A DNA stretch of 64,000 nt from Blasia pusilla. Its lineage: Eukaryota. Made by a program: the position numbers and the translations under genes. Location: positions 32,302,001-32,366,000 of the forward strand of contig CM114271.1 of NCBI GenBank assembly GCA_050084515.1. The letters run 5' to 3'. Below the pieces are notes generated by a model. That model did no database searches, had not been told where the DNA came from, and worked only from the letters and a program-made list of their open reading frames with translations. Positions 1 through 56,660 of this stretch are shown in pieces; the stretch's first letter is position 1; each line of letters starts with the position of its first letter.

Positions 1-916
1 TAAACCCTTGCATCTCTACAATAATATTGCTCTCATGTTCCCAAGTCTCCACGATATTGATGATGTCCGCCATCTCCCAAATTGGTAGAGCACTCACATA
101 CTTTGTTGTTGAAAGGCCTCGTACATTCCACATCAACACTCTCAGCTTCTTGGATTGCTAGGTTGATAACTCTCTTTTTCTCTAGGTAACAATTGTTCGA
201 CCATCGCGTAAATAAGCAATAAAACCTGCTTCTTGAGCCTCTTTGACCTTTGCAAGCTCCTTTCTCCTAGCTTCGACTTGTAGAAGTGTAAGATCAGGAT
301 CCAACCATATCCTACGTCCTTTGAGAATGGCCTTGTTAGCCATAGCAGTATCACGTTTAGTTTGATCAACAAACTTAACTAGAATGGCACGAGGTTGTGT
401 TCCCATTTTCCCAATACAAAAATCTTAAACCAAGTCCGGGTTATGAACATGAAGTGTATCAACCAAGAACTTGGTGACGACACTCTTCACCTCTTCGCTC
501 TCTGTTTCTGGCAAACTTGAGATTCTCACATTCTTTCTATGGGCAAATTGGTTTTCCTGTTCTATCTCTTGCTCTTGATAGAAAGAGATATGAGGAACCT
601 TTGTACCTTCAGCATAAGATTTCATTTTCACTTCTAACGTTTCAACAACCTCATGCAATCTTGAACTATTGGGAGTAGTCACTAATGATGATGCCTTCTC
701 TTGAACATCCGCAACAGATTTGGAAAGATCGAGCATCACACTAGAACTATCTTTCAACACTTTCTTCAAAACGTCTTGCGTTGCCTTTAACTCTCGGATT
801 TGAATATGTGCAAGGTTTAATTGAGAATTTTTTACCTTGAATTCTTATTGAAGCTCTTTCAATTCATGCAAGACCACTTGCACTAGATTCAAGATTTCCT
901 CTTGAGTAGTCATCAT
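1..916 (-). mobile_element. 5' part of a non-LTR retrotransposon (LINE): decayed ORF1 followed by the start of the ORF2 apurinic-like endonuclease, running off the window edge
   Basis: ORF1 fragments RKNVRISSLPE...PRAILVKF...IWLDPDLT (182-769) resemble L1/CR1-type ORF1. Manual translation of 144->1 gives LRVLMWNVRGL...ADIINIVETW, the APE N-terminal WNVRG and ETW motifs. Confidence 0.85.
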
Positions 917-1024
917 GTAGTCGACTTCACTACATCCCAGATATTGCACGACCTCCACTCAAGTATAACCAAATCTCCAACACCACACAACTTCTGCTCA
1001 AGAAATTGGTTATAATTGAAATTC

Positions 1025-2323
1025 GTAGGACTAGGGCGCCTCTTAAAATCTCAACTTCATATGACACTCTACCTCAAAAATATGGCCTCAGCAAGATTCA
1101 GATCTGAAATCCAAAAATCTACAAAAGTAGAAACTCAAATATCTCACAACTTCGTCTCTGTGACTCGGTTGTGCTTGCAATTTTGAGGGCTAAGGCGCCT
1201 TCTTACACTCCACATTACCTAAAAATCTCAGTTTCATATGACACTTTGCCTCCAAGATATGGCCTCCGCAAAATTTAAATCTGAAATCATAAAATCTAGA
1301 AGAGCAAAAATTTAAATCTCTCACAACTTCATGTTTGTAACTCTGTTGTGCTTGCAATTTTTAGTGCTATGGAAAATCTTTACATTCCACATTGCCTCAA
1401 AATATGAGCTTCATATAACACTCCACCTCAAAGATATGGCCTCCGCAAGATTCAAATATGAAATCATGAAATCTAGAAGAGCAAAAAATTAAATCTCTCA
1501 CAACTTTGTCTCTGTAACTTGGTTGTTCTTGAAATTTTAAGGACTAAAGAGAATTTTTATAGTTCATGTTGCCTAGAAATCTCAGCTTCATATGACACTC
1601 CACCTCAAAGATATGGCTTCCGCAAGATTCAGATCTAAAATCCTGAAATTTACAAGAGTAGAAACTCAAATCTCTCACAAGTTCATGTTTGTAACTTGGT
1701 TGTGCTTGTAATTTTGAAAGCTAGGGCGCCTCTTTACATTCCACGCTGCTTCAAAATCTCGACTTCATATTACATTCCACCTTAAAGATATGGCCTCCGC
1801 AAGATTCAGATCTGAAATCATGAAATCTAGAAGAGCAGAAACTCAAATCTCTCACAACTTCGTCTTTGTAACTCGATTGTGCTTGCAATTTTTAAAGCTA
1901 GGGCACCTCCTTACACTCCGCATTTCCTCAAAATGTTAGCTTAATATTACAGTCTATCTTAAAGATATGGCCTCCGTAAGATTCAGATCTAAAATCATGA
2001 AATCTAAAAGAGTAGAAACTCAAATCTCTCACAACTTCGTCTCCGTAATTTGGTTGTGCTTGCAATTTGGAGGGCTAGGTGCCTCTTCACACTCCACGTT
2101 GCCTCAAAATCTCAGCTGCATATGACATTCCACCTTGAAGATATGGCCTCCGCAAGATTCAGATCTGAAATCCTGAAATCTACAAGAGCAGAAACTCAAA
2201 TCTCTCACAACTTCGTCTCTGTAACTCGATTATGCTTCCAATTTTGAGGGCTAGGGCACCTCTTCACACTCCATGTTGCCTCAAAAATCTCAGCTTCATG
2301 TGACACTCCACCTCAAAGATATG
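1025..2323. repeat. Tandem array of a ~177-bp unit, about 7.3 copies
   Basis: The anchor TATGGC(C/T)TC recurs at 1081, 1258, 1435, 1612, 1789, 1966 and 2142, with a truncated copy at 2320. Periods are 176-178 bp. Confidence 0.95.
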
Positions 2324-2599
2324 ATCGGGGTGACATTTCACCGCACGATTGCCCCCCTTGCTCTTGAAGTAAGTCTTCAACATGTATTTCCAACAACATA
2401 TGTTTGTACACAACATACATTGATGATTACATCTACACCACACAAAACCGATCTTTCCCACACACGGGTAGATCCAAACATGTATAAAAATCAACTCATA
2501 CATATACATGGAGATCACACAACCGTCCCCTAGTTGGCAGTTAGATCCCCCTAACTCCAGATAGAAAATATCACATCTCTCTCACATGACCTATTACCC

Positions 2600-5200
2600 T
2601 AGACATATCTCGGACACATCCATTGTCCTGTGGGAACTACATCAAGAGGGGGGGGTCAAACATGATATATGCCACCCTCGAGAACAACCATCACATATCA
2701 ATATGGTGGCTGCACCCCTCGCAGATCTACACAAGCATGCAGGTACCACTGCCAAGCTCGGATCCACTGTCCCGTCTACGTTCGGAAGATGATGTGGCGC
2801 ACAATTGCGCACATGATCCTTCCAAACCATACCACCCCGTCCCTCCAACATGAGGACTCCGGTCGGTAATACCTCGCGCACACATAGGATTGTGCGCCCT
2901 AGAGTGACATCTAGCGTCGTGGATGCCATCTGTTGTAAATGCACGTAATCTCCAGGATGAAACCTCATAATCCCTGGATGATAACCTCCTCCACGAATGG
3001 TTGCATACCTCAATGTATCTCTATGTTGAGCAATAGCTAAGTTCTCAAAGGCCATAGGCATAACTCTACGAAAAACCTCCACCCTCTGAGAACATGCTTG
3101 TACCCACACATCTGGATCATCAAGATCTAACACCTCTGCCATGTCACGTCGAATATTTGCAAGTAAATTTGGCTCTCTACCAAAGAGCAAAAAGTACGGT
3201 GAAAATGACGCCAAGGATGCATGCCGACTAAAACGATAATCCATAGCCAACCATGGCAATTGTAGGTCCTACTCCCTCAACTATCCCCGTTGCAAGCCAT
3301 ACTTACGCAATCCTCTCCTCATCCTCCCATCCGTCTCAAGATGATCTTTGGACGTGGTGCGGTGATCTATCAGCGCTTGATCACACAAGGCCTGAAACTC
3401 TCCCCTAAACTCGGTACCCTGGTCAGTCAACACCTCCGTCGGGGCACCAAAATGACTAATAAATGGTAAATGGTAAATGGTAAATAGATCAGGCCCGTGG
3501 GACCCAAAGGATCAAAAGGCTGAAAAACACATTACAAGTCATTCATGCACTGACCCTGAAAAAGATCCTTAAGATCTTCTCCTAGCTACAGCCTAGAGCA
3601 CTTTAGCGATGAATGATGACGTCCCTAAGATAACAACCTAAATCATAAGGCACTAGCTTTAGTAAAGAATAGAAATTCTCCACATCTATTTTATGAGCTA
3701 GTCTAATCTCTTCATACCTTGGACATGTAACAAACACATGCTCTTCATCCTCAATATTTTCTCCGTCACATAACTTACAAATTCGTTCACTTCTATCAAT
3801 TTTAAACCATCGTCCTTCCTCAATTCCTAGCCTATGAGACCCAGTTCTATGACGTGCAATAATATTTCGTAAGAAAGTGGAGATCCCCGCAAGTAGGTAT
3901 CCTTATTCACAATATACAAGCATAGGATTAACATGAAGTTGATAAAACTCCATTTTGGTGCCCGGACTGCTCCAAATGATGTTGAGAAATTGCTTTTGTA
4001 GATGCTCACGGAGGGCCATCGGTTTCAAGTCCCAATCGCTTTCCGCCACATTGCACTTTGAAGACCAAGTCACCACATCCGCCATCCACCTTATGGAACG
4101 TGTGGCTCGCAAAGCTTGATGAGGGAGGCGAGAAACATCAAGAGATCTCACCCTTGCGATGTAAGTGATGGTCAAGTAAAGAGCTTAAGCTTCTAGAGGA
4201 AGAAAACCTGTTTCCGCAAGAAGAATAGCATACGGAGTTTGGTTTCTTACACCCAATTCTTCTTGTAGAAAGATCTTTTGCACTCTTTCCACGTGATCCC
4301 AACCTGTCTTCTTACAACTAGAGCCCCAAACTTGGGTCCCATATAAGATCACCGACAACACTAAGCTCCTAAATAAGAATTTCTTAAGACTCCAAGACAC
4401 AAGATGAGCTCTTCTACACCGGTTTAAAAATGAATATAGAGCTTTGTAACTAGCTTCTACTCTCTTTTGCACGCAAAGTGCCCAACTATAGTCATAAGAG
4501 AAATCGATGCGTAGATATTTGTAACTCTTCATTTGTTCTAATTGTAGACCTTTGTAAAAGAACGAGAACTAGGATCTAGTACCCACTATAATGACTTTAG
4601 ACTTCTCTATATTAACCTCCATCTGATTCTGGGTATAAAACCTTGCTAAAGTGTCGAGGTGCTTTTGTAAACTTATGCCATCATATGCTTTTGTAAACTT
4701 ATGCCATCATAAGTTGTTCCCTTGCTTGCCTTATCCGGTAGTGACTAAGCACACGATCTAGGAGCGCATAAGCTGTTCCCTTGCTTGCCTTATCCGGTAG
4801 TGCCACCAACTCTATCCACTTGGAGAAATGCTCCACCATGACCAACACATACCTGTGATGACGCCCCGTCAATGGCAAAGGTCCCGCAAAGTCTAAACTC
4901 CACCGATAACCTAAACCCATAATCGGCAAAGGATGTAACTGCAGAGTGGGAGCATTTAAGGATGCTCGCACTCTGTCACATACCATACATCTGGCCACAA
5001 ACTACTGTACCCCAGTATGAATGCCACGCCACCAATACTGAACCTGGAGTAAGTTATAAGTGCGCTTTACTCCAAAATGCCCCAACTCCTCATGGGCATG
5101 TCGCACTACACGTGCTCGTTGGGAAGGATGAGGTACCACTCATATCCTACCATCTTCCCATACCTGCAAAATATGAGTCCCCTCCCACCTAAACCTCATA
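2600..5200 (-). pseudogene. Gypsy integrase (HHCC + core) with a C-terminal PHD finger, interrupted by a LINE insertion at 3460-4741
   Basis: GHFGVKRT...CMVC, RWSLDFAGPLP, VEHFSKW, then after the insertion FGAPTEVLTDQG and FSPYFLLFGREP. The C-terminus reads LICDGCSRGWHISCLTPP/LDVVPTGQWMCPR with a frameshift in a poly-C run. Confidence 0.88.
3460..4741 (-). mobile_element. 5'-truncated LINE (C-terminal RT region and CCHC finger) inserted into the Gypsy integrase
   Basis: ORF2 fragments YKYL..., ILYGTQVW, SHRLGIEEGRW...ICKLC...EDEEHVFVTCP. The 3' tail is a short (TAAATGG)n repeat at ~3460-3485. A 7-bp TSD TGACTAA lies at 3453-3459 and 4742-4748. Confidence 0.88.
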
Positions 5201-5373
5201 GCTCTCTATAGGATCCGATCCCGCTCCCTAGCACTCACTGTGCCCACTATGACCCCAGTGCGCAAGAACTCCACAACCTCCACATCGTCATGGACATCAC
5301 GACCACATGTTGCCTCCTCACTAACCTCCACATCCAAAGACTCATCATCCAATCCCACCACTGGAGTCATCAC

Positions 5374-6870
5374 CTATGACTGACCTACCATAGTCAACCA
5401 ACAAAGATAGGCAGATGCATGCCCACCGGGCACCATCTCCTCATCACTCTCTCCATGCCATCGAGCTCCTGTATCGTCTCTTTGATTCGGACATGGGTTA
5501 CGACTCAATCCATCCGCATCTTGGTTCAGCCGACCTAGCCTGTGAACCACCTCAAACTCATACTCCTGTAGTAATAGAGCCCACCTGGCAAGCTTTCCCG
5601 TAAGCTTGTCGGACTCCATCAACCACCTCAACGGCTGATGATTAGTGATAAGTGTGAAAGGGTTGCCGAATAAATAGCACCTGAAATGTGCCACGGCCCA
5701 CACTATAGCCAAGCACTCTCCCTCATAGGAGCTGTACTTTGCCTCTGCAATGTTGTTCAATCGGCTCGCGTAAGCCACAACGAACTCCCTCTCCTCGTCA
5801 TCCCTCTGAGTAAGCACTGCTCCTAGATCCAACATGCTCCAATCCGTATATAACTGGAATGGGCGACCCCTAACCGGTCTCTGTAAAATGGATGAGGACG
5901 TGAAGCTCTCCTTGAGCTCTTGAAATGCTCGCTCTTGATCATCTCCCCACAACCAAACCTGATCAAGTCTCGTCAACAAAGTCAAAGACTTTGCGATCGC
6001 ACTAAAACCCTTGACATACCGTGGATAGAAGTTTGCCACTCCAAGAAATGCTCAGACTCGACTCACATCTGTAGGGCGTGGAATCTGCGCAATAGCCTCC
6101 ACCTTTGTCTGCTAAACGCCTAACCCACTCGGGTATATAGTGTGTCCCAAGTACTCAATCTACTCCTGAAAGAATCTGCACTTGCTTGGATGTAACTTCA
6201 CTCCATGTAACTCCAATCGCTGAAACACCTCCTCCAGGTGTCACCCATGCTCCTCAACCGTGGAACTGAAGATAAGAATATCATCTATGTAACATCATAT
6301 AAATTCCAAGCCAGCCAGAATCATATCCATCACTCGCTGAAACTCTACAGGCGCGTTCTTCAACCCAAATGGTAAGAACCGCCAATGATACAAGCAATCT
6401 CTCCCGAACCGATCTATCCCCCATAATGTTGTCTTCTCCTTGTCTTCCAACCTGATAGGAAGTTGATGATAGCCAGCACAGAGATCTTAAGTACTGAAGA
6501 TCTTTGCATGCCCTACCGCATCAAAGATCTCCTCAGGAGTAGGCATGGCGTATCGATCTGACCTCGTTTGTCGATTGATAGGACGGTAATCTCCACACAT
6601 CCGTATATCCATCCAATTGCCATACATATCCTAGCTTCTTCGCTAACATGATTGTGGTAGATGCATACTCCCCATGTGGTAATTCCACAAGTCCTGCCTC
6701 CAACAAGTCCTGACTCCTGTTCTGAATCAAGGTTCGCTCCGTATTAGAATACTTGTAGGGTTGACAAAAGATTGGCGTATCACTAGCCAACTCAATCCGT
6801 ATCCCGGGACCCTTCAGCGTACCTAAGTCTCTCATACTGAAGGCAAAACAATTGACATGCCCTCTCAAAA
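5374..6870 (-). pseudogene. Gypsy reverse transcriptase and RNase H
   Basis: LPFGLKNAP (~6350-6380), CYIDDILIFS (~6270-6295), FQLYTDWS, YSSYEGECLAIVWAV, KLARWALLLQEYEF, NQDADGLSR. Several stops and frameshifts. Confidence 0.93.
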
Positions 6871-7239
6871 ACCTATGAACTCGCCGTCACTCTCCTCCTA
6901 TCAACTTGACACCTATCACAAGCTCCCAAGTCCCCATCGTGACACTCGGAGAGGACGCAACCTCCGACTTTGGTTCCTATGTAGCAACTCTAGCCACCTC
7001 CGCAACAGCTACTCCACTCTGACCTCCTACACCATGCTCCACATCCAAAAAATGAACATGTGCTACTGTGGCCACCTTCGCACTCTCTGCTCGAACGATG
7101 TCCCAAGAAGTCCATGGGTGTCTATCTCTTCTCGTCCCGCCCCCAGCCAATGCCTATACAGACCCTATAGGCAATGGTCCAGCTTGTGGACGTGATGAAA
7201 TGGATAACACTCACATCCGTCTCTCCTCAGCCATACCTA

Positions 7240-8175
7240 AGCTGACTATCAATGTGAGACAGTTGAGGTCCATCGCCTGTCCCAACACCTATCTTCGGGA
7301 TGCCTCAGTCATACCTAGCACCGCCGTAGTACCTATAGCAAACCCCATGGCGCGCTCGCGCTCATCTGCTGTAGGCTCCTCCAATGCTCTGGTCACCTCA
7401 TCCCAAATCATGCCTGGTCCTCCCTAACGAAAGGCATGGGATGCTGGGAAGCTCACCAACGTAGGTAAGGTTGCCCTCAACTCCCCCACCCTATTGGCCA
7501 TCGCCAACGGTGGTCTATCATCCCGTGTCACCATTTGAGATCGACGCCCTAAGCCCAAAATAGCATCCACTGTGAGATGTGGTGCTCTCTGGACTCCATC
7601 GTATGCTCAACTCAGTACCTTTGATGGTATCAGGTTCGTCCATCATAGTCATAGACGATGGGCACGTGATCCAACTCTCGCTGCATCTAGCAACACAGTA
7701 GGTCCCAACCAGAACCTCACCTAATGCACATACGTCATCACACGTGCACGAGTGTCTCCCAACAACGGCACGTTCTCCAAAATGTACGTTTGAGAACATG
7801 TCTAACTCTATTGCAAGTGCCATACTACTCGCAGCATCTCCCAAACCATCCTTGACCTCGGATCCTGCAATCCAAATCCTCGGCCAGTTGATGAATGACC
7901 CTGACAAGGCCATCCAGAAATCACCAAATGAATGGTGCCAACTCTATCCAGATTTTGCGCCCCCACCAAAGAGATGTATGTTGATATCCCCGTACTGCAC
8001 ATACAGGCAATAACTCAAGATACCTGTGGACCAATCTCGCTACGTAACGTAATGATACTCGCTGCGCGGTCTCATCTCTCCACATAAAGGTACTGATGCA
8101 CCCGTATGCAAGCCTCCAATATTGCAGCCAATCCAGTGCTAATCCCTCCAAAGAGATCTAACACCCTAACACCCT
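7240..8175 (-). pseudogene. C5 cytosine DNA methyltransferase domain embedded in the Gypsy polyprotein between protease and RT
   Basis: Manual translation: motif I VLDLFGGISTG (~8135-8165), motif IV LVISGWPCQGHS, GLQDPRS, motif VI YILENVP (~7765-7790), motif VIII DAARVGSRAHRL*L*WTNL, motif IX EPTADERERAMGF, motif X RR*VLGQAMD. Two frameshifts near the N-terminus and several in-frame stops. Confidence 0.9.
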
Positions 8176-8605
8176 CCTCTACACACTGCCACACAACGGG
8201 TGTGGTATCCAGTGGGGTCAACGTCTCCACTCCAAGAGCCCAATCGCCACGTGACTCTCGCTGCTCCAGGATAAAGGCATGACTCTAGGCCTGCCTCACG
8301 AGGTCGTCGGCACTCCTCTATAGCTCTCGAGTCATACCCCACAATGGTGAAGAGGTCTCACCAACACGGGAAGAGACACCAGCCATGTCCTATCTCTCCA
8401 TGGGACTATCCGCTACTAGGACATCCTCCGCATGTGCGTTCCCCTCCAACAACTCTCCTGGCCAACTAACACTACTTGTGAAAGCTGCCAACGTGGTCAC
8501 ACACTCGTCTCGTGATCGACCACCTTGTCCCGCAAACTGCACCGGTAACCGACTTATCCGCCCGTCACCTGACCGCCATCCAGGCCGATAAGCAACGGTC
8601 TCCTC

Positions 8606-9076
8606 CTAGAAGTCAAGGATGAATCCTAGGGGATATAACACTATACTCCCCACCAATACATTGTACGACTCAGCTGGTGTCGTAATCTCACATGTGCGCA
8701 CCATAGCACTATCTGTCGCATGCTCTGGCTGGACTCTGACAACTATCTCCTCTCGAGTCATATACTGCGTGGGTGATACATCCCCAATTAAGGTCTGTAT
8801 CTGGAAGGGACAAGTCTCAATGTCGGCCTTCCGTAATCCCAATGCTAAACACGTGGCCTTCCCTAACATCAAGGGCTGCGCTCCCGAATCAAGTAGGATG
8901 CGCTGCGGGTGGTAAACTATCCCCGTCGGACTAACCAAGCGAAATACTCGAGCTCGGTTATCCAGTAACACTACTCCATGTGTCACCACTCCTCGCTCTA
9001 TGGCCGATTGAGCTGGCATATCTACCAACTTTGCCCGTGCCGCATGCCATGACTCTGTCGGGAACGTCCCGAGCAC
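8606..9076 (-). pseudogene. Gypsy aspartic protease
   Basis: ILLDSGAQPLML active-site motif and downstream YNVLVG. Confidence 0.85.
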
Positions 9077-9336
9077 CGGCTCTTAGGGCAAGTCCACCAT
9101 CTTCTCAACTACCTCTGAACAAGAAGCAGTCACCTCTCCACGCTCACACAACGTGGCGGCCAATTGGAACACCTCAACTGGTCCAACTCCCAATGTCGCC
9201 AACTCTATGGCGAAAAATAACGGAGTCTGACTCACTCTAGTGGCCACCTCCAACACTATGGTCGACACTGACTCCACTCGAGCCGGCATAGGAGTTGTCA
9301 CTCCAACTCCTCATGAAGTCGATGTACGTGCCTGAA

Positions 9337-10391
9337 CTAGAGGCACCGCTGGTCGTCGAGGCACCATCGATGGTGTGTATAGTACCTCCGACAATGTGAA
9401 TGATTGTGGAATCCTGGCTTGCCGCTCATCGGTCCCCTCCGGTCTATCTCTGGACATGCCTCTTGACGAAGGTCAAAACATCTATCCCTAGTGTGACCAT
9501 ATCTCTGGCAATAGTCACACTTGTATTGTGGTGGGGCCATCCTTTGTGGCTCCTGAGCAATCGCAGGCACTCGTGGTCCTCTCCCATGCTGTGTGCAGTC
9601 TCTCTGCCTATCGGCCCCTCCACACGTCCAACAAGACAACATCGGTCCTTGTTGGGCAACATATGTAAGTACAGGTCGTTGCCTCATAGGCTCACGGTAC
9701 CTGGCCTGCTCTCTGGACACACTAGCCCGCTCCCGTGGTACTAGTGCTTGCTGTGGCACCTGTGGGGCCACCGTCGCTCGTGGACCCGTCGACTCTCGAG
9801 AAAATCCAGCGGTCACTACCTGCTTCTCACTCATGTTGAGCTCAATACGCTCAGACAACTCAAAGACCACCTTCAATGTGGGCTTTGTTGTGTGAATCAG
9901 CACCACATCTCGGACACTCCTTCGTACTTCTCGGTCTAGAATCCCGTACCAATACTGGACGTGAATGCCTCTCTCAAACTCTCATCCGATCATCGCTGAA
10001 AATCCTGTAGACTCTTCAGCTTGTCGGTGCGTACGCCTTGGTAGCTCTTCCCCAATTGTCGGAAGAACTCCATTGTGGGGCTGAAGCTGGGTGGCCCTCA
10101 ACCACCAAAGATATCTGCCACATCGCCTGTCTCATGGCCCTCCTCTCCATCTAGTCTGCGGGCTGATGGTGTGGGTCTCTCTCCTCTCACGATCCCATCA
10201 TATGCCTCGCAACCACTAGTGGACACATACCCTGGAGCCCAATACATCCTCCAAGCATCAATCTCTACTGAATATAGTGATCGAAACTCCATATAGTCAT
10301 CCATCGGAGGACCCTCCAAATGCTGGAACAACCCCTTCCATGCCATGAAAGGGTTGAACCGTGTCGAGAAGTCTCCTAGAAGTCGCACCAC
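9337..10391 (-). pseudogene. Gypsy gag remnant with two zinc knuckles
   Basis: CWTCGGADRQRDC (degenerate) and CDYCQRYGHTRDRC, located upstream of the protease. Confidence 0.75.
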
Positions 10392-12445
10392 GTGTCGAAC
10401 TCCTGGATAAAATCATCTAAGTCGATGGTGCCCATTGCACCCGAGAAACGACGCATGCCTTGATGGCCCATGTCGTCCATCTCCTGCCAAGTGATACTGC
10501 CTTCGTCTGCGATCTCGTCACCAGACCCAGTGTCTAGTGATGACGATCAAGCCACGGATGGATGTCGAGGTAGCTCCTCACTGGTAACCCCTCGGTATCT
10601 CACTCCACTCCGTGTCACTCCACTACTACTGCTCGCACTACCCCATTCTTCCAAACCCTGGAAGAACGTCGTGATGACAACCCTGTCTCACCCGCTCAAG
10701 CACTCAGACTCACCGAGAGTCTCCCACACTCCTCACTAGCTCACCTATTCTAACATCAATCCCATGATGACAGACCCAAGCTCATGCACACTCAACACTC
10801 ACGCTCACCATGAGCCTCCCAACTGACTCACCTAACCTAGCGACACTCTCTCGGGTCATACACACGATCCCTACTCGACAACCGCCGTATATCCACCAAG
10901 ATGCTACACATGAGAAGAGTCTACACTCGTCACCATCATTGCATCCACCTAGCACCAGCTACTACCCGATACCCAGCACTCTCAATCACACACGACAAGT
11001 GCAGGAAAAGGGACTCGAATGGGTAACCTGATCACGCCCTCCAACCTACGCACCGTCAACACTCACTCCTCCATGTGGTACGGCAACCTCTGCAACACGA
11101 CACTCTCCTTGACCACCATGTCAAACCTCCCGTCAGCACATGCGGACTACTTGTCGGCATCAATGCATGTGTCTCTAACAGTACAACTCCGTCGAAACAC
11201 CCTCCACCAAAATTGTCGGTGCGGATACCCCATGTCACTCACCAATACATCCAATCTCTCGGAAAAATCTCTGGCCCGTGGCCCTATGCGGGCCTCCCTA
11301 AGTATGGGGAGGGGGGGGAGAGTGGAAGAGGGGGAGGGAGACCTGGCCTGCGGCCCTATTCGCTTCCCGACTCCGTGGTCCTCAGTCCCTCTTCCATGAC
11401 CTAACCCTAGCCCGATCGTGCCCTAACTAACTAGCCCCTCGGCGGTTGCAAATGTATGAACACACACTCTCCTCTATCTCCTTCCCGACATCTGCCGTTC
11501 TCCTTTCAATGCTACACCCGAGCATCCTGTCTGCCACTCTGCTGCTGCTCTACTCTAGTCCACTACCCACGAAAAATCTGAGAAAAATGAGTAGCGCTTC
11601 CGCGTACAGCCTTCTGAACATAAAAACGACACACAAACGTCAAATGGTGTCTCCAAGGGCTCCTCGACCGAGGCAACTTGCTTGCCTACCCGCAAATAAA
11701 AAATTCCCTGCCCCCTTGCATCTTTCTCATGAAAAATAAAGAGTAGTAAAAATGGCACAACCAGCCTAAAACTCCACTCCTCAATCTACATCGGCATATC
11801 GAGCCTCGTCCACCCTGTGCTATCAAGGAATCCAGACGCTAGCACCCTAGTCCTAACTCACACACATACAAGAGAGGTGCTCCAACGGCCCAACATGAGA
11901 AAGATGGCTTAGGAAAGCCATCTTCCTCTCTTTCATAGGGTTGGAAAGAGCCAAAAGGCTCTTCCCCTTAAAATAGCCATCCCCTTGGTAACATGCGCGC
12001 ATAGGTTACCAAGGGCGGGTGACCTGGTCAACAAGTCACCCGGCTATGAAAGATCTCAACAAGAAAGTCGTCAGAAACAACGTTCCAGACACAATAAACC
12101 TATCCTCAACCTCATCTGACATTGTGAGACAAAGTTACACTCAAGATAGTCCGTTGGCTCCTACGCCCTATCCACGATAGATCTCGGCCTACCGGCTATT
12201 CATATGTGACAACTCGTTTGCTCTTCACCTTCTTTGTGGCTTGTCTGATTGCATCAATCATCTGTGTTCCTCCTTGCTCCTTTACTTTTTGCTTGATAGC
12301 CACCATCTGGAGCTCCTTCATTTCTGTTCTCCCTTCCTTTGATTTGTTATTACGGCCCCGAAAATAGTTGACTCCTACTGCACAGCCTGCAGAATGCAAG
12401 TTATTCTGTAGGTTCTCAACCCTATGTGTTTTTAACGGTCTGATG

Positions 12446-13078
12446 TGTCGTGCGCATACACATCGCTATACAACATACATCGATGTCACTGAACACATAC
12501 ACAAACACCCACAGTCCCATGCTAACTCATGGTATCCAAACAATAAGACAAGAAGTACCAAAATATCTCCAATTAAATAAGGTGAGATCTCTCTCACAAC
12601 ACCATAGCTCTCACATGTGTGCACTCTCACATGTTTTTATGAATGTCAAACCAAACCCACTCTCCTTATGAGAGGCTTGGGTTACTCTCACAAGGCAAGA
12701 GACCATAGTTGTGCTGCCTCATGTCAAGAGGTTCAACAAAGAGAGAATAAGCTCTCTCTCTTTGAGGTATATCCCTCCTCTCTCTCAAACTCTCTCCATG
12801 GTAACCTATGCTCCCAAGTCACCTCCTTGGTTCTTGACCTGATGTAGGAGGTCAATGGTCACTTCCCAAAATACAAAGTTGACCATATATTCAAAATGGT
12901 ACTTACCTAAAATAGTAAGTTCCTCAATATGGCTCAAATGAGCCGAAACGAAAGGAAAACTTGCTCTCTCAAGTTTCATGGGGCCTCAGCAAGTCATCCT
13001 CGACCTCTTGAGCCTGTCCTCCACTACTCGTGAAGGCACTCTACTAGATCTCACCAATCTATCCTAAAAGACGTGATA
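12446..13078. mobile_element. LTR-like unit (~630 bp) starting TGTCGTG and ending in a mutated CACGACA-type terminus, followed after 2 bp by the start of another copy (13081-~13155)
   Basis: Homologous to 33120-33768 and to reverse copies at 37588-38160 and 24500-26053. The reverse copy at 37588 shows the intact terminus TGTCGTGTCTTTTAGG. Confidence 0.7.
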
Positions 13079-15375
13079 GTTGTCGTGCGTATACACAACA
13101 TACATCACTATCACCGAACACACACACAAACACGCACGATCCCCTGCTAACTCACCAAGAGAGCTCATCCATAGGGTCAAGTGCAATCCTAGATAAGGGG
13201 AGGAGAAAAGCATAACAAAGGTAATCCTGAATAGCCTAGGGGATCCGATGGAACAATCTCGAGCAAGGAAAATGGATCTTGAAAAGACCCATGACACTAC
13301 TAAGGTGGGTCCTCAACCACTCCCTTGACTCCAGAGGGGGTTGTGATGCGGGAAACGTCGGAGAGCATCCATGGTCAACTAGAGGAACCACCCATCTAAA
13401 TCTATTAAAGTCGGGATAGTTTTCCGCTAAGTGGTTCCGAATTCCTAAATGAATGAAGAATTCGGGACAACAAGGGCATCTCGACTAGACGAACCGCGAA
13501 TCCCCACACGAGGGGTTGGATTGGGTCGAGGCATTAATAGGACTCACCAATAAGATACCATCACCCCCTCCATCCAACTCGAGAGACAAATCCCACCAAA
13601 AGCGCCTAAACTCTCCTCATTCAAACTAGGAATTACGGTAATTGACTCTCTTCCTATCCACAGTAATGCTCCCCCTGGAATAAACACTCAACTACCATCA
13701 CCATCTAGGACTTATAGAACCCAAACCCCTCCCCAAACATAACTAGAGGCTTCATGGTGATAATAAGGATATGGGAAGAGAAGTGTAAAAATATATAAAA
13801 ATGGATGGAAAAAGGATGTACCTAAGGGTGAATGGATGGAGACAACCATGAATTAAGCATAAGCAATAAATAAGGATGACACATTAAGATAAATGTAGAG
13901 GGAAGGGAGTGTATTATGAAAAGAAGTTACATAGGGATCGTTCGTTACATTACAACATGTGAAATGCTAATGCTTATATGGGAAACCCTAATAAGAGTAA
14001 GAATCTATGAAACAAAATAAAAATAAAAATACCTCACAATATGAGCCATGGTGCGGATCAAAACGAACACATAGTGGAGCTCGTTGTTTTGACATATAAC
14101 ATACTTTCTCTCCTAGACCCTCCTCGCCGCTGCGCACGTCCCACTTTGTCCGCCCACCCATCCGTCCGCATCCGTGTGCGCCACCAGTTATAGAGCCATC
14201 CCACTGAAAAGGAAAATGATTTCGTTAATTAAAATTAACTAAGAATTTAATTAGTAAATGTTATTTTGGTGGGAAGAGTAGGTATTGTTCAATTTTTAAT
14301 GAAAGAATGAAATTATTTAAGTATTATTTAAAAATGAAAATTTATTACTCTTTTGATATTAAAAAAAATTTAATTATATTTTGAAATGAAAATATTTCTA
14401 ACTTATTAAAAAATCATTTTCGTTACTAGTGGTGGATTAAAGAAGAAGATTCCGATTTGAGATTGTATTCACGTGAACACGAACGAATGGAAATTCACGA
14501 GAATGATGAAGTGCTGTGCACGAGCGTTTGAAGTAGTGTTCCCAGGGGCTTGTCTGTGCATGAGGCTTGGAAGTTGTGTTGGGCAAGGTTTGTTTGTGGC
14601 GAGGCCCTCCCTCGCGCTTGCGTGCGGAAAGGGTGGGTATGGTGGTCAGGAAGCCGAGCTACGAAGCACGAGGACGCAGCCAGATCTAAAACTGTGACTT
14701 CGGATCTCTCTTTCTCTCGCTCTCCGGAAAGGAAATGAAAGTTTCGCTTTCTTGCGAGTGCCGACCGATTCACACAGAAGTGGCGGCGGCAGTAGCAGCA
14801 CGGAGATGAGGATTCTGTAATTAGGTTTCCATATCCAACGATTAAATTTCATTACGCATGAATTTGACTTGCGCACTTTGCCCCGTTTCCTTGTAATGAC
14901 CATTTGTCCTCGTCGCTCGCAATTCCTGTCTTGGGATCGTTCTGCCTGAAAAAGCGCGCAGCTTCCGGATGGGCGGCAAGAAGCAATGGTTGTGGATACG
15001 ATGCGTGGATCCTAGTTTTAGAGGGTGCTGCAGGTGGAGCGGGTGATCCGGGATCGGGGCGTTTAGCTCGTGCTGATCACTTCCAGCTAGGGTTAGGGTT
15101 GGGAGCATTTCGAACGCGGAATGTTTGCCGAAGAGAGGAGAAAATTGGATTGAAGATTGGGGGCTGTGTTGCTGGCAGGAGTGCTTTTCGTTTCGCACCT
15201 CCTTGCCGTCTGGTTCGCGATTTACGGATGTAATTTGTGATGCGGATGAATTCCAGAATCTGTGTCTCGAAATTACGAGAATTTTGACAGTGGCGAGGCA
15301 ACGGAAAGGAGGACGGATTGGAGGGTTTGACAGAAATTGAAGGAATTTTGAAGCGAGCAGAAGAATTCTACGATT

Positions 15376-18300
15376 ATGGTGGGGCAGGCAGGAGGTGCGG
15401 GGGGTAGCGGGCCAGGAAAGAGGGGAAGGCCGGCTAACGCAGTAAATAACAATGCCAATCATTCGGATGCCGCCGGAGGGGCTGGAGCCGTGGCTCAGCC
15501 CACACTCGGGCCTTCGCTTCAAGTGCTCAATTCCTTTGCAGGTTTGTATCGTTAGTCCTTAGACAAAGGCTGCAAATGCTTTTTGATTTTTTTCTTCTCT
15601 ATATTAGTTAACCCTTAGAATTATATTGTACATTTAGGAGCATTATTTCCGGCATTTTTTATGGGGCACTTATTGGGTACTCGAACAGAAAGATGGCTAT
15701 AGGGATCCTCCTTTTTTTCGTTGGATTTACCCGGGATCAAATAGAGAACTCGTTCGGTTTGTGTAGTCGGAAAATATGGGTGTGACGTCGAGGTCGGTAA
15801 AAGAATATGAGCACCTTCTCCCATACCCTTCCTTCCTCCCCTCCCCTCCTCCCCTAGCCTTCCCTCCCCTACCCTCCTTTTTTAAAAAAAAGAAAGGGTC
15901 TCGTGGGTCTTGATTTGTGCCTAATGGAAAAGTCGATCGTGTAAATTTCCACGAATATTTGGCTAAGATGACCTAAGGATGGTGGTTGGTGCACGTTCTT
16001 CAAGTCAGCTCGTAGGCGTTAATTTGCCAGAAGAAGACTGCAATTTAAAAGTTGAGCTGATGTAACTGGTATCCGTGCGATTCAACGATCCACTAGTCCA
16101 TCAGAGACTGGGTCGAGTCTGAAGGCACCATTGGAATCATCCCACTTCCCTGTCTCTGGCCGAGTCTCACGGGAGGCTGGTGCACGGAACGAGTCACTTG
16201 GGGGCATGTTGTAACGGACTGTTCTATGTTCTTGAAGCTGCATTTACAATCCAAACACCAGCCCACTTTGACTATGGGTTCCGGGTCTGGCTTTGTGGTG
16301 CAGAACAACATCACAAGAGGTTAGTTATGGCGTTGCAGAGCGGACTCAAAGGAGAGCTCGCATGGGCTCTCAATGCTCTGACGATGCTCTCGTTCAAAGA
16401 GAAGGATGATAACAGGAAAGATTCGACTCCTCTGGCGAAAATACCTGGCCTTCTTGACGCACTCTTGCATGTGGTACGTGCCGAATTATCCTTGTGTCGT
16501 TCTCTGATCTTGTCGCTGTCTCGGGCTTACAGCCCTTGAATTGGAACCGCTTTTAAGTCCCATTTCATTATTGAACGAATCTCTCCTTGTCGATCATATA
16601 GCCCATGTGTTTGAATTCTCTCTCGAGATGATGGGTAGTTGGTACCAAAACCACGAACCCGGTCCATTCCACCTCCTACTTGTCTGCGCATTCCTGCAAG
16701 AACCGGCATGGTACGTTCTGAAAGTTGCGCCTTCTTGTGGGTTGTCAAGCGAAGATCAATGAGTGGCGCGATATTGGTCATAACAGAGAGTCAGCGAAGC
16801 TTGCTCGACCACGCAATTTGGGAGCTGGTCGCCCTTACACTGGCTTCGGGCTCGAGTACGACACCTCGAGTCCCAACGATCCTCTCAACCGCATAAGGTA
16901 AGGAGTTCAATGGCTCCAGGTCTTCTAGTTGATGGTATGTATTCCGAAAAGAGTATCTAGCGGTGAATGCACTGACTTTGAGACATCCGACCACGGCTAC
17001 TTTTGCGGAAGGTTCTGTAGGACAACCCATAGATCACATATCGATGCAAGCAAAGACTAGTCCATATGGCTTGCATCGGGCCGAAAATAAATGACCTAAA
17101 TAGAAAGAAGGAAGTTAGGACTCTAGCAAGGCTAAAAGATTTTTCCCTTGCTGTCGTCTGTTTCCGGATGTACACTATGCCTCCGAAATTATTTCATGTG
17201 AAGAGCTTAAAGAAGGTGCATGACAGGACATTATCAGAGAACTGGCCGCAAGATGATGCCCAAACCGATGGAGGCGGGCAAAGGAAAGCTTTGGATTGGT
17301 GGTGGGACGAAGAGGGACTTTTCAATCTAGATGAGCTGGGGAGGTCCGAGCGACAGCAATGTGCTGTAGCTGCATCCAATGTGATACGGAACTTCTCGTT
17401 CATGCCTGAGAATGAGGCTACCATGGCTCAACATCGAAACTGTCTGGAGACTCTGATAATCTGCATGGAGGACCATGAGACTGGTAGGCAAAGACCTTAC
17501 CCCTTGTGCTGCTTCTTGAGCCCACGCATTCGGACTGGGGAGAATTTACTCCTACGTTGCAACAGTCGGACTGTTTTGGAGATGGTGATGTGACACTGCT
17601 GCCGTTGCGCGCTTTGCAGAGGATGACGAGCTTGTGACCAACGCGCTCGACTCCATCGTCAATCTCGCTCCCTTTCTGGTTCTGAAGATCTTCGGTGAGA
17701 TGATTGATTCACCTGCCCGAGGTCGCATAACGTAAGTCGCCAAGCCTTCAGGATAAATCCACTCTCGTAGCAAGAGGATAACTGTTGGCTCCGAATCATA
17801 AGAACCATCAGTCTCTGAAACTATTGAGAGGCATGCGGTTCTCAACTTCCGACAGTGCGCGCCTTCCAAAAATCAACTCGACACGGAGAGTTTCGTAATG
17901 TATGTCGTAAATATTTTGTTCATATGCAGGGTCAAGAGAGCAGTGCAGGCTATTTTGGGGATGTTGGAATCGCAAGTGCGGGCATGGCACTGCTCAGCCG
18001 CAGAATTACTCGGCCGTCTTGTTGTCAACCCCGACAACGAAGCTTTCATTCTGCCCTTCGCTCCCCAGGTTCTACGAGCCATTCTTACTTTTCTCGCACT
18101 CGTCATCTTCTGTACAGTTTCCATTAGGAAAGTATAGAGAGGCGTCTTAGCTTCTGGCAGTGTTCAATTAATCACGAGCCTAGTGATGAATGCCATCTCT
18201 GAATGAAACTTACACTGCATTCAAGGACTTCGCAGATTTACAAACGATTGGTAGATTTGTTGGGGCTTCCTGGAGCTGATGCGCAAGCAGCTGCTGTAGC

Positions 18301-34639: not shown

Positions 34640-35760
34640 ATCTCCAATCACTCTCTAGTTGGTGGTTAGGTCCCTCTAACTCCAAACAACCATATATCCC
34701 TATCTATCATGATGTACATCTCTAAAATCCTAAGAGCAAGAAGGTCGGATGCTCATGTAGTTCCATCGTTAGTTGTATTCTTGTCATCCATGTCACAAAT
34801 ACAAATCTCGCTTTATGATTATCTAGCAGCTACTCTATGTACATTTGGGATATATCCATCGTCCTTGAGGAACTATAGTGAGAGATGACATAAGTCATGC
34901 CATGCGCCATCCTTTCGAACATTCATCATAAACTAGGATGATGGCTACACTACGGGAAGATCCACATAACATACAACGTAAGCATATAGGAACTACTTCA
35001 AAACTCAAATCAACTATGTCGTCAATGTAAGGAAGGTAACATGATGCAAAATTATGCATATGATTCTTCCAAACCATACCATTACATCCCTCCAACAAAA
35101 GGACATCGAATGGAAATCCTTCACGCACTCTTAAGATTATGTGTCATGCCTGTTGTCACATCCAACATTTTGGGTGCCCTTTAATGCAAATAAACATAGT
35201 CTCCCTGATGAAACCTCTAAATCTTTGGCTGATAACCACCTCCCTCAATAGTTGCATATCTCAACGTATCCTAATGTTGCACAATCGTCAAGTTCTCAAA
35301 CGCCATGGGCATAACTCTTAGAAATAACTCAACCCTCTAAGAATATGCTCGTATCCGTTTATTAGGGTTATGAAGGTTGAACACCTCACCAACATTACAA
35401 ATGGGGGTAGGTAAGTCAAACTCTCGACCATAAAGCAACAAATTAAGTAAGGTGGAAAGATGTCGGGGATGGTTGCCTATCAAATCTATATCCCATTGTC
35501 AACCATGGCAATTATATATCCCAATCTAGGCGAACTCTTTGCAAACCATGCTTGCATAAATCTCTCTTCATCGTCTAAATAACTCTCTGTACTAGTCTAT
35601 TTGCCTCAAGATGATCTCACAAAGTAGTTTAATGGTCAATCATCGTCTGATCACACAACTAAAACTCCCATAGAAACTCTATACCTTGGTATGTAAACAT
35701 CTCGGTTGGTACGTCATAATGACTTACCACTTGATCTAGGAATGTATATGCTACTCTGGA
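34640..35760 (-). pseudogene. Highly decayed integrase-PHD fragment of the same Gypsy family
   Basis: LLEGCNGMVWKNH...CLRCMLCGSSRSVAIILVYDECSKGWRM matches the 2642-3259 integrase/PHD. Confidence 0.8.
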
Positions 35761-36829
35761 TCCTTGTTGTGTGCATACACATTGATGATCATACACACCG
35801 ATATTCCCAATACAAGGCTCGATCCACTTAGAAACGAAATATACTCACGCATGTATATTTAGACCACACAAAAAAATTCAGAGTAAACAACGGCTCACAC
35901 GGCCAACTCCACTCTTGAATCTACATCGGTATACCAAGCCACATCCACCCTCCGCTATGAGGGGATCTGGGAGTTCACACCCTAGTTCCTACACACACAA
36001 AGTAAGAGATGTGCTCCTACGGTCGTTCTTTTTGAGTGGAGAATTGATATCTTCGGATATCACACCTATTGTGTGGCAGCATCTGGAGGAGGATACGAGA
36101 GTGTTAGATTTCTTTCGAGGGATCAACATGGCTGATAGCTACAATGTTGCACGATGACATTCAGATACTTCAATATCTCTATGTGGGGATTGATAAGATG
36201 AATCCGCGAACCAGTATGTGTCGGAAGATGTGGCGTGAATGATGGCACCAACATTGCTAGATGTGTATAGAGTAGTAGATCATGACAGATAGATGTGATG
36301 TCTACTATCTGGAGTTAGGGGGACTTAATTGCCAGCTAGAGGGGCGGTTGTGTGGTCTTGATATATATATATTTTTATCCTGAGTGAATCGGCCCATGTT
36401 CTGGGAAGATCGGTGTTGTGCGGTGTATAGAAGTGACTAGCGATATGGATCATGTAGCAATGTGTATGCTCACAAAAACTGCCACATCTTAGTTAGTCCA
36501 AAAGTAGAGTTCTACCGCTTCAACGCCACAGAAGGTCAACAGGTTGTTTGGGCGTAACTTTGTCTTAAGCGAGCTCTTAAGGTGTTGAATGAGGTCGATG
36601 AAAAGTCCATTGTATTGGGAATATTTATTCTTAAAATTTCCCTATTTTTGTCTTAGTCAGCTAGGTGATCTGTTGACCAAGTCAACGATCACCCCGTAAC
36701 CTCTACACGGAGGCTATTTTTGGACGAAGAGCTTTTGGCTCTTCCAAAGACTATAAGAGAGGGAGAGATGGATTTCCCAAACCATCTTTCTCATTTTGGG
36801 CCGTCATTTGAATTTTTTCAGCTCCAAGA

Positions 36830-37585
36830 AATAGACATGGCTCCATGCCTGCCTCACGAGCTCGTTTGCAATCCTTTGCTACTCAACGCTCGTATCCAAT
36901 AACGATGAAGAGGTCTCCACGCCATAGGAAGAGACACCCACCCTAGCATGCATATCTCTCCGTGAGACTATTTGCTACCAAGATGTCCTCCATATGGATG
37001 CTCCCTCCAACAACTCCCTCACCAACTACTCACTATATGTGAATATTGCCAACATGGTCCACCACCACTACACCTCGCAAACTGCACTAGTAAATGGGTC
37101 ACATGTCCATCACCTGATCACCATCCCAGTTGACAAAAAACCATCCCCTCTCAAAAATCAAGGATAAAACCAAGATGGTACAATACTGTACTCCTTACCA
37201 ACACATCATACAACTTTGTCAATGTCGTAGTCACCTGTGTGCACACCGTCGCGCTATCTGACTCTAGCTCTAGATAGAGTCTAACAACTAACTCCTCTCA
37301 AGTAACATATTACATGCACGTGGGTGATACGCCCCCAAAAGAAATCTGTATATGGAAGGGATAAGGCTCAATGTCGCCCTTAAAAAACCCCAACTCCCAA
37401 CATGGTGCCTTCATTGACATCAAGGGTTGCGCTCCCGAATCAAGTAGGACGCTCTGTGGATGATACACTATACCTGTTGGACAAACCAAGCAAAACACTC
37501 CAACTTGGTTACCCAACAACACCACAATTGGAGTCACCATGGCTCGCTCTATAGCTAGTCAAGTTGGCATATCTGCCAACTTCCC
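36830..37585 (-). pseudogene. Protease-region fragment of the same Gypsy family, truncated just before the methyltransferase domain
   Basis: PTGIVYHPQSVLLDSGAQPLM is nearly identical to the 8606-9076 protease. Homology runs to the equivalent of ~8270. Confidence 0.8.
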
Positions 37586-37587
37586 TT

Positions 37588-38029
37588 TGTCGTGTCTTTT
37601 AGGATAGATTGATGAGATAATAGAGTGCCTTTGAAGATACTGGAAAACAACCTCGAGAGGTTGAGGATGACCTATTGAGGCAACAGGTAACCTGAGAGGG
37701 CAAGTTTTCCCTTCGTTTTGGCTGATTTGGAGCCACATAAAGAAACTACATATTTCGGGTAAGTTATCATTTTGAGAATAGTTGACTTTCTACTTTGGGA
37801 AGTCAACCTTGATCTCCTATAGCAGGTTAAGAGTCAAGGAGGTGACATGCAAGCATAGTTTATCATGGAGAGAGTTTGGGAGAGGAAAAGGGATATATCC
37901 AAAGAGAGGGAGCTTGAGAGCTCATTCTTTTTTTATTGAACTTCTTGGCATGAGGGGGTGGAGCTATGGTCCTCCTTGCCTTGTGTATGTAATCCAAGCC
38001 TCTCATTAGGAGAGTGGATTTGGTTTGAC

Positions 38030-38122
<93 letters not shown>

Positions 38123-55399: not shown

Positions 55400-56655
55400 T
55401 CTCATGATTAATTTTCCGCTTCTGATGTTATGAGTCTAACCACCAACTCCTGTCGAGTCATTCCTTTTGAGTCCTGTGGGTCAATCTCAAAGCCACCTCT
55501 CGATGGCTCGCTTACTCTCATAGCACCCCGAGTCACCACGTGCACTGCCACAACCTCAACTGAAGCCGCACTACACATAAATCCCATCCCCGTAGAATCC
55601 TCACTAGCATCGTGGTAAGATTTGGAGGTTTGCACCACACTAGCTACTCTTAGCTCCGGGCCTGCCTGTAGCTGTATCATTGTCATGGCAGCAATCCTCT
55701 GCTCCAACTGATTGATGCATATAAGGAGTGCTACATCGGGTGCTCGCCCTTCATCTCCTATGACTGGTGATGGCACTCTACCACCACGATCATCCACCAC
55801 TCGATCTCCACCAACTCTCTCGCCCCCAAGTCCTCTACCTATCTATCTCTAGGCGTACTTCCCAGTGAAGATCATAACACCTATCCCTAGTGTGACCATA
55901 TTGGTGACAATGATCACATTGCAACTATGGTGGGGCCATCTTGTGTATTACCATCCCCGTTCTCATCACAAGACCCATTCTCTAGTGATGACGATCCAAC
56001 CACTGATGGGAGTCGAGGTGGTTCTGTGAGAAAATAGAAAGTGACGAAATCACTGAAATCTTTACAAAACTTAGAGATACAAAGTGGCCTAGTCCGTCCG
56101 TGCGCTCACAGAAGAGCTTCGATGGAACCTGAATTGGGAGATAACTCGACATACGAGAATGCGCTACCGCTGCGGCTCCCGACTATTTGACTACTCGGAA
56201 AAACTAGGCTTCAAACTATGTCGGAACCATCAATCTAGGATTCTCCTCATACAAGGGGGCCGATCAGATTAATGGTGCTTAGAGAAGTGGATGTTGAGAA
56301 TCCAACAAGTTCCAACAAGTTCACTCGAAACCTCTCTATACTTCACACCACTCCGTGTCACTACACTACCACTACTCGTACTATCCCATTCTTCTGAACC
56401 CTGGGAGAACGCCGTGATGATAACCCTGTCTTACCCGCTCAAGCACTCAGCCTCACCAAGAGTCTCCCACACTCCTCACTAGCTCACATATGCTAATGCC
56501 AATCCCGTGACAACACACCCGGCCTCACGCACGCTCAACACTTGGGCTCACCATGAGCCTCCCGACTAACTCACCTAAGTCTCAAACATACTCTCGAGTC
56601 ATACACGCAACCCCTACTCAGCAACCATTGTATATCCACCAACATGCTACACATG
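55400..56655 (-). mobile_element. Fragments of gag and leader related to the DNMT-Gypsy family
   Basis: 55880-55940 matches 9481-9541, and 56330-56655 matches ~10590-10915. Confidence 0.7.
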
Positions 56656-56660
56656 AAAGG

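Follow-up and report, generated by a model that had tools for sequence, protein, structure and literature searches.

A degenerate Ty3/Gypsy retrotransposon of Blasia pusilla with a predicted DNMT3-type cytosine methyltransferase domain between protease and reverse transcriptase

Retrotransposons known to carry a cytosine methyltransferase

The closest described system is KnitGypsy-Dnmt3 of the charophyte alga Klebsormidium nitens, in which an intronless DNMT3-type domain lies within the Pol open reading frame of a Gypsy element (de Mendoza et al. 2018, PMC5890265). According to the same study, Symbiodinium harbors DIRS- and LINE-borne DNA methyltransferases (DNMTs), and one of them, SymbioDIRS-Dnmt3, methylated CG de novo in yeast, which no other retrotransposon DNMT has been shown to do. 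When the Klebsormidium domain was assayed in yeast, no methylation was seen, a result which the authors considered inconclusive, as human DNMT3B had failed too. In addition, they discussed the action of such enzymes on the element's own cDNA or on a new insertion (PMC5890265). More recently, EpiLTRs were described from Cymbomonas and Euglena, which are likewise LTR elements with a cytosine methyltransferase and a chromatin-reader domain; unlike in the element reported here, their DNMT is sister to DNMT4 and is located at the pol 3' end, together with an adenine methyltransferase and a chromodomain (bioRxiv 10.64898/2026.05.21.726589).

As for green plants, the available text of this preprint and of PMC12344493 mentions 'streptophytes (Gypsy-DNMT3)' only, citing the 2018 paper, and the words Marchantia, moss and liverwort are absent from the text of PMC5890265. 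For liverworts and mosses, a full-text literature search returned no paper on a Gypsy element with a DNMT, though supplements might contain some. Such elements have been described in a green alga and apparently not in land plants. The kind of element is already published, and the bryophyte proteins stand in public databases as hypothetical proteins; new are the land-plant hosts, the high copy number and transcription, the position between protease and reverse transcriptase (PR-DNMT-RT), and the green-algal sister clade.

The DNA analyzed here, called the window, is a stretch of 64,000 nucleotides from the bryophyte Blasia pusilla (GenBank assembly GCA_050084515.1, contig CM114271.1, positions 32,302,001 to 32,366,000 of the forward strand), and a degenerate Ty3/Gypsy gag-pol occupies the minus strand of its positions 2640-10550. 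A previous examination of the letters and open reading frames (ORFs) of the window, here called the sequence-only reading, had noticed a methyltransferase in this element and mentioned precedents in dinoflagellates and charophyte algae, which is correct (PMC5890265). The element shares with KnitGypsy-Dnmt3 a non-rearranged and intronless domain of DNMT3 type in a Gypsy Pol, a streptophyte host, and key residues that are conserved in the algal domain as well as in the family of the element (PMC5890265). The two differ in that the host of KnitGypsy-Dnmt3 is a charophyte alga and that of our element a bryophyte land plant, that K. nitens has few copies whereas the present family is high-copy, and that DIRS-like repeats were reported for KnitGypsy-Dnmt3 whereas no terminal repeats could be paired here (PMC5890265). 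Where in Pol the Klebsormidium domain lies is not stated in the text of that paper. No Klebsormidium protein is among the named relatives listed below, and the likeness to KnitGypsy-Dnmt3 is thus one by description. SymbioDIRS-Dnmt3 also has its DNMT3-type domain within a retrotransposon Pol, but it resides on a DIRS (tyrosine recombinase) element of dinoflagellates, a backbone unrelated to Gypsy (PMC5890265).

Architecture of the element and its methyltransferase domain

Our preferred reading, to which we give a probability of about 0.8, is that the window contains a degenerate Gypsy copy from a family whose Gag-Pol polyprotein would run gag-protease-DNMT3-reverse transcriptase (RT)-RNase H-integrase-PHD-like, with the methyltransferase domain inherited and selected within the family and not captured by this copy. 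For the Pfam search, the minus strand of 2400-11500 was translated in its three frames with X in place of stops. The search returned the pol families RVT_1, RT_RNaseH with RT_RNaseH_2, Integrase_H2C2 and partial rve in the Gypsy-type pol order (Table 1), and DNA_methylase upstream of RT. By tblastn, pol is collinear with the relatives P0009, P0156 and P0159, and Mp_4g09160 of Marchantia polymorpha is collinear with window 10462-7031.

Table 1. Features of the element in the window, with the evidence for each
Feature	Position	Strand	Evidence
LTR-like segment upstream of gag	11732..12573	-	Read joints; 85% alike to 56663-57313
Gag-like region	9460..10462	-	Collinear with residues 9-353 of Marchantia P0159, tblastn 44-79% in pieces; no Pfam family above cut-off
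Aspartic protease (LLDSGA)	8525..9082	-	ORF 8606-9082; collinear with P0009 residues 770-929; Pfam gag-asp_proteas 16.2 bits, under cut-off
Predicted DNMT3-type C5 cytosine methyltransferase domain	about 7229-8239	-	Homology to relatives (tblastn), Pfam, motifs; stops and two frameshifts
Reverse transcriptase	6136..6886	-	RVT_1 95.1 bits at about 6136-6603; tblastn P0009/P0019 to 6853
RNase H	5560..5949	-	RT_RNaseH 113 bits, RT_RNaseH_2 103 bits (Pfam)
Integrase zinc-binding domain and first part of catalytic core	4729..5127	-	Integrase_H2C2 53 bits; rve 24.3 bits, partial, under Pfam cut-off
Private insertion splitting integrase	3451..4739	-	477 DNA reads from other copies pass from 3450 directly to 4740
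Integrase C-terminal part	2843..3460	-	tblastn P0156 residues 2021-2234, P0019 residues 1324-1605
PHD-finger-like integrase end	2642..2737	-	Pfam PHD 19.8 bits, cut-off 24; first 33 of 47 profile positions

The minus-strand segment between protease and RT is predicted to be a C5 cytosine methyltransferase domain. In the minus-strand reading from 8284, VLDLFGGISTG, GWPCQG, YILENVP, SRAHR..WTN, ERERAMGF and LGQAMD follow each other, and these correspond to motifs I, IV (Pro-Cys), VI (ENV), VIII, IX and X in canonical order when aligned to intact relatives. The read-through translation matches PF00145 with 27 bits (cut-off 22, E 3.8e-6), a family which scores 45-54 bits in intact relatives, and the remaining two minus-strand frames over the segment gave no Pfam family. 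Moreover, a phmmer search against 1.84 billion representatives yielded 1508 proteins at E<=1e-3; of the 165 that reached E<=1e-30, many have a length of 1000-3400 aa. We judge this methyltransferase likeness to be far beyond chance. The Protein Atlas gave no more than a generic C5-methylase cluster, with Streptophyta as the commonest phylum. The homology to relatives spans about 8239 to 7229, a little wider than the 7240-8175 of the sequence-only reading. The alignment to intact proteins shows no large gap or insertion within the domain, which is therefore intronless, and the LLDSGA protease ORF stands on one side of it and RVT_1 on the other, all on a common strand.

These results bear out what the sequence-only reading had claimed for the segment: all six motifs stand in one minus-strand reading, the Pfam map and the alignment to intact proteins confirm the placement between protease and RT, the pol strand and the intronless state, and the PF00145 check that it had proposed came out above the curated cut-off. 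It had also called this copy dead, with stops and two frameshifts, and this is confirmed as well. The copy makes no enzyme; its marks of decay are stop codons, two frameshifts, a private integrase insertion of 1289 bases and the lack of paired LTRs. The single-frame reading from 8284 meets 11 stops (6 TGA, 5 TAG, 0 TAA), two of which sit in a stretch that is properly read in another frame, and motif VIII is broken by two stops. Between motifs I and IV, a run of about 36 codons aligns with an intact relative in the third frame only (P0003 residues 66-101 against P0201 75-110, 64% identity), and two frameshifts must therefore have occurred; at one of the two sites, a two-letter indel separates 587 of 662 DNA reads from this copy.

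As to the methyltransferase family, the single broken reading matched the catalytic domains of DNMT3A and DNMT3B first in the PDB (1.1e-7), with M.HhaI far behind (0.17). A profile built from the alignment of 23 family members gave DNMT3A at 4.6e-25, DNMT3C at 3.9e-23 and DNMT3B at 7.9e-23, followed by plant DRM (2.9e-13 to 8e-11, confined to the motif I-IV half), M.HhaI (6e-8) and DNMT2 (2e-5), and no DNMT1-named chain was among the 58 PDB matches of this search at E<=1. An AlphaFold model was made of the intact relative P0201, which is 56% identical to the reading from this copy (pLDDT 87.2, pTM 0.87). With this model, Foldseek ranks 1-50 were all DNMT3A/B/C chains, with a best E of 1.7e-19 and a TM on target of 0.79-0.85. 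The profile search and the Foldseek ranking back a DNMT3-type assignment, where the sequence-only reading had likened motif VIII to DNMT3/DRM-type enzymes, and Pfam found no PWWP, ADD or DUF3444 in the three minus-strand frames of 2400-11500. The domain is thus best described as a predicted DNMT3-type catalytic domain without host-type accessory domains.

DRM enzymes, in contrast, have a circularly permuted motif order in which VI-X precede I-V. DRM identity was ruled out by the unrearranged order I, IV, VI, VIII, IX, X.

The catalytic domains of animal DNMT3A, 3B and 3C are the best matches in sequence and fold and have the same motif order, at approximately 20-23% identity to the element domain. 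The motif IV form GWPCQG of the element is unlike that in the DNMT3A alignment, and of the PWWP and ADD accessory domains of animal DNMT3, neither was found by Pfam in the element. In non-flowering plants, the host DNMT3 likewise has a non-rearranged DNMT3-type domain, which is joined to a C-terminal DUF3444 (Yaari et al. 2019, PMC6453930), whereas the domain of the element is embedded in Pol without DUF3444.

A DNMT2-like role, in which the domain would methylate RNA (the element's genomic RNA or the tRNA primer) instead of DNA, was raised as a possibility by de Mendoza et al. for a LINE-borne DNMT (PMC5890265). Here we regard it as very improbable, because DNMT2 is matched far more weakly than DNMT3A in the profile search and because the fold of the P0201 model matches DNA-bound DNMT3 structures first.

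The integrase end of the element carries a candidate chromatin-reading module. Searched against the PDB, the PHD-like end matched the PHD fingers of DPF2/3, BAZ2A, CHD4, KDM5B, PHF21A and AIRE, from E 4.5e-5, and several of these fingers read unmodified H3K4. Chromoviruses are Gypsy elements with a chromodomain at the integrase C-terminus; Pfam found no chromodomain in the element, which has the PHD-like finger in that place, and membership of the chromoviruses was rejected on this ground. Much like chromovirus chromodomains, the finger would steer integration, via histone H3 tails, which we put forward as a hypothesis only.

Reads of other copies bridge the integrase insertion, which is therefore private to our copy (Table 1). 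The insertion is itself repeated (DNA depth 390-625) and, by reading of its ORFs, looks like the tail of a non-LTR element; Pfam zf-RVT scored 17.5 bits there, under cut-off, and a LINE-like ORF at 3603-4568 had sub-threshold Pfam matches only. Regarding the element ends, the LTR-like segment upstream of gag also follows the internal 3' end in other copies (joint 12573>2527, 405 DNA and 170 RNA reads), where it comes right behind a G-run. This second occurrence is missing at the left end of our copy, and the sequence adjoining the segment differs between the ends. A repeat search and BLAST with word sizes of 7-11 detected no LTR pair in this copy; there were only weak end likenesses of 71-73% (2407-2480 with 12467-12542, and 2552-2591 with 12564-12603), and a comparison of 2380-2526 with 2527-2900 for a split repeat gave nothing. 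The LTR status rests on the pol domain order and the read joints, since the terminal repeats of this copy are unpaired.

Two further observations concern the left part of the window. At 1046-2406, a unit of roughly 177 bases is present in at least six tandem copies with 62-83% identity; this array adjoins the 3' end of the element, the place where an LTR would be expected. On the minus strand, the ORFs at 2-844 resemble, on visual inspection, a LINE in which ORF1 ends and an endonuclease begins, with no Pfam family above cut-off.

Relatives, constraint and abundance of the family

For 135 relatives with a length of at least 600 aa, we determined where the domain lies among the pol domains. The order is PR-DNMT-RT in 51 of them and RNase H-DNMT-integrase (RH-DNMT-INT) in 75, and nine were unplaced. 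The whole series CCHC-PR-DNMT-RT-RH-INT stands in a single unbroken ORF in three polyproteins (2318, 2327 and 2352 aa), and these are intact members of the sort that the sequence-only reading had proposed to look for; Pfam found no PHD in these three. Named relatives with the PR-DNMT-RT order come from Marchantia polymorpha, M. paleacea, Riccia sorocarpa, Calypogeia fissa and five Sphagnum species, and those with the RH-DNMT-INT order from the green algae Scenedesmus, Monoraphidium, Haematococcus, Chromochloris and Cymbomonas. The RH-DNMT-INT relatives mostly possess a PHD finger after the integrase, and a full PHD of 38-39 bits is present in most algal polyproteins.

These green-algal RT-RNaseH-DNMT-INT-PHD Gypsy elements have a related DNMT (33-44% identity) on a related Gypsy pol: between our element and P0019 the RT-RNase H has 42% identity, and the span from RT to integrase has 42% identity to P0009. 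A PHD finger behind the integrase is a further likeness, although the match in our element is below cut-off. They differ in that their methyltransferase domain lies between RNase H and integrase, whereas that of our element lies between protease and RT.

The Marchantia-type proteins were also considered as host genes, and this was rejected, as protease, CCHC or RT surrounds the domain in nine of the nine examined. Bryophyte gene models of the PR-DNMT-RT type that are annotated as 'DNA (cytosine-5)-methyltransferase' are transposon pol fragments and not host epigenetic genes.

Two trees were calculated by quick searches, and neither was given an outgroup. The first has 80 domains, among them a random draw of 35 from the 70 RH-DNMT-INT rows, and three duplicates were removed; in it the two architectures stand on opposite sides of one branch (SH-aLRT 99). 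In the second, a tree of 44 rows to which named short proteins were added, the element domain belongs to a clade with 29 rows, bryophyte or unnamed, in which four genera are named (SH-aLRT 99). The clades formed at genus level by Marchantia polymorpha, Calypogeia and Sphagnum (each SH-aLRT 100) do not include it. The family belongs to a clade present in liverworts and peat mosses, and this placement points to a bryophyte as the most likely host. The Sphagnum domains share 72-77% identity with those of liverworts, among which they nest with a support of 84-92; such a nesting, weak as this support is, is at odds with the host tree.

Conservation of the domain was compared among 44 PR-DNMT-RT relatives, which kept the PC motif in 38, ENV in 42, the motif VIII form AHRxR in 41 and motif I (F.G) in 41. 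Between distant full-length polyproteins, identity was 42-43% for the DNMT, 26-31% for the protease, 23-28% for gag and 16-32% for the linkers, and 51-52% for RT, 58-60% for RNase H and 50% for the integrase. With its catalytic motifs kept and its identity above that of protease and gag, the domain therefore resembles a functional, selected domain. It could still be imagined as a pseudo-enzyme, i.e., a non-catalytic module that binds DNA or nucleosomes or serves as a structural spacer in Pol. The absence of methylation by the Klebsormidium domain in yeast (PMC5890265) fits this idea, and so does the algal RH-DNMT-INT clade, in which the Pro-Cys dipeptide is found as PC[QNY] in just 16 of 35 rows. 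However, the retention of the Cys motif, ENV and the motif VIII arginines in the PR-DNMT-RT rows speaks against it, as does that of motif I, and we consider a pseudo-enzyme unlikely in the present family. In many RH-DNMT-INT relatives, Glu replaces Pro ahead of the catalytic Cys (P0016, P0019, P0035 and others have this architecture).

The abundance of the family was estimated from raw-read runs, which were picked not by an indexed match but by the species label of those runs that share most of the stretch. In the sequencing-run index, 12 runs share part of the stretch, with a best share of 0.33, and no RNA run sharing it was present in the index. From DNA run X18, sampled at about 1 in 100, 103805 of 12.43 million records were placed at a likeness of at least 85%; most of them are 85-95% alike to this copy, and 387 of the 103805 reach at least 99%. 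Where the reads differ from this copy, 74% of the differences are transitions (1310 of 1762 places). With both orientations summed, the DNA depth over the methyltransferase (7010-8362) is 1020-1034; gag and protease reach 960-1110, and RT, RNase H and integrase 1127-1593, against 72 over the private stretch 11069-11519 and 0-16 over the flank 13775-16000. When the depths are added up, about 0.4% of all letters read belong to the coding part of the element; the copy number of the family therefore lies in the hundreds to thousands, according to the size of the genome.

These depths also bear on a one-off origin, in which the mRNA of a host DNMT3 would have been processed and captured between protease and RT by a single copy or a tiny subfamily. 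A retro-copied insert is expected to be intronless and may lie on the pol strand, and both are true of the domain. Nevertheless, the domain is as deep as gag and protease, approximately 1000-fold, and for this reason it is not a one-off; none of the 15 best-supported read joints, the weakest of which has 30 DNA reads, skips the methyltransferase. Moreover, the host DNMT3 bears a C-terminal DUF3444 (PMC6453930) of which Pfam found none in the element, the PR-DNMT-RT order recurs among the long relatives, and the element falls within the well-supported bryophyte clade mentioned above. A one-off capture is hence scarcely credible. The sequence-only reading had named other members lacking the domain as what would speak against it; instead, equal read depth, one-ORF polyproteins and annotated bryophyte proteins all show members that have it.

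Transcription was followed in three RNA runs. Over the methyltransferase, the depth with the first mate on the plus strand was 2.1-15.3, versus 0-0.45 on the other side; from RT to integrase it was 25-46, with 0-4 on the other side overall. Assuming the usual stranded libraries, these reads mean sense transcripts of family members. Because the depth over the DNMT is lower than that over RT to integrase, part of the RNA may stem from relatives that are less than 85% alike or lack the domain. The family is high-copy and transcribed in the organism of the read label.

The stretch 12446-13323 is the most repeated and most transcribed part covered, with a DNA depth of 1400-2900 and an RNA depth of up to 161. 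It is tandemly repeated elsewhere, as shown by a 635-base go-back joint in the reads (13080>12446).

Possible activity and significance

Cytosine methylation is the main plant route to transposon silencing. A transposon family with its own de novo methyltransferase would reverse this usual picture, and self-silencing, camouflage of the cDNA and marking of the insertion site are candidate uses of such an enzyme. By analogy with the published elements, the domain of intact copies would be made as part of Pol, be an active de novo DNA methyltransferase, and act on the element's own cDNA or new insertion; for this proposal taken jointly, the odds are about even. That a Gypsy-borne domain of this kind is active on DNA at all has, in our estimate, about even odds too. 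Published activity is that of the dinoflagellate enzyme only, and the charophyte case has few copies (PMC5890265). Relatives of the present family are annotated in the transformable model Marchantia polymorpha, which makes the use of the methyltransferase to the element testable in plants.

If the enzyme is active, a family of about a thousand copies could also act in trans and add to the de novo methylation of the host. In addition, the split between PR-DNMT-RT in bryophytes and RH-DNMT-INT-PHD in green algae would suggest a transposon DNMT3 lineage approximately as old as the green plants, and the weakly supported nesting of Sphagnum would hint at transfer between bryophyte lineages. This wider picture, comprising a long-lived, high-copy, transcribed Gypsy lineage of bryophytes, Marchantia included, with a de novo DNMT3 and, at least in this family, a PHD-type histone reader, host methylation in trans, an age near that of the green plants and a moss-liverwort transfer, is tentative, and we consider it unlikely to hold as a whole.

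Base composition was also inspected. The ratio of observed to expected CpG is 0.68 in the element versus 0.65 in the whole window, and, the two being alike, it provides no special evidence of a methylation history. Across the element, GC skew over 1-12000 is -0.20 to -0.28 on the plus strand, and the sense strand is therefore G-rich.

Finally, the window contains other traces of the family. At 34980-38031 there is a second copy, rearranged and truncated, which retains the end of the integrase, the protease and, of the methyltransferase, only a scrap of the start in inverted orientation, and at 55838-58650 a further rearranged and truncated copy has kept the leader and the start of gag. Beside the element, the plus-strand stretch 14677-15578 has a plus-strand RNA depth of 7-15 in the three runs and no DNA depth in the 1% sample, and it looks like a transcribed single-copy stretch.
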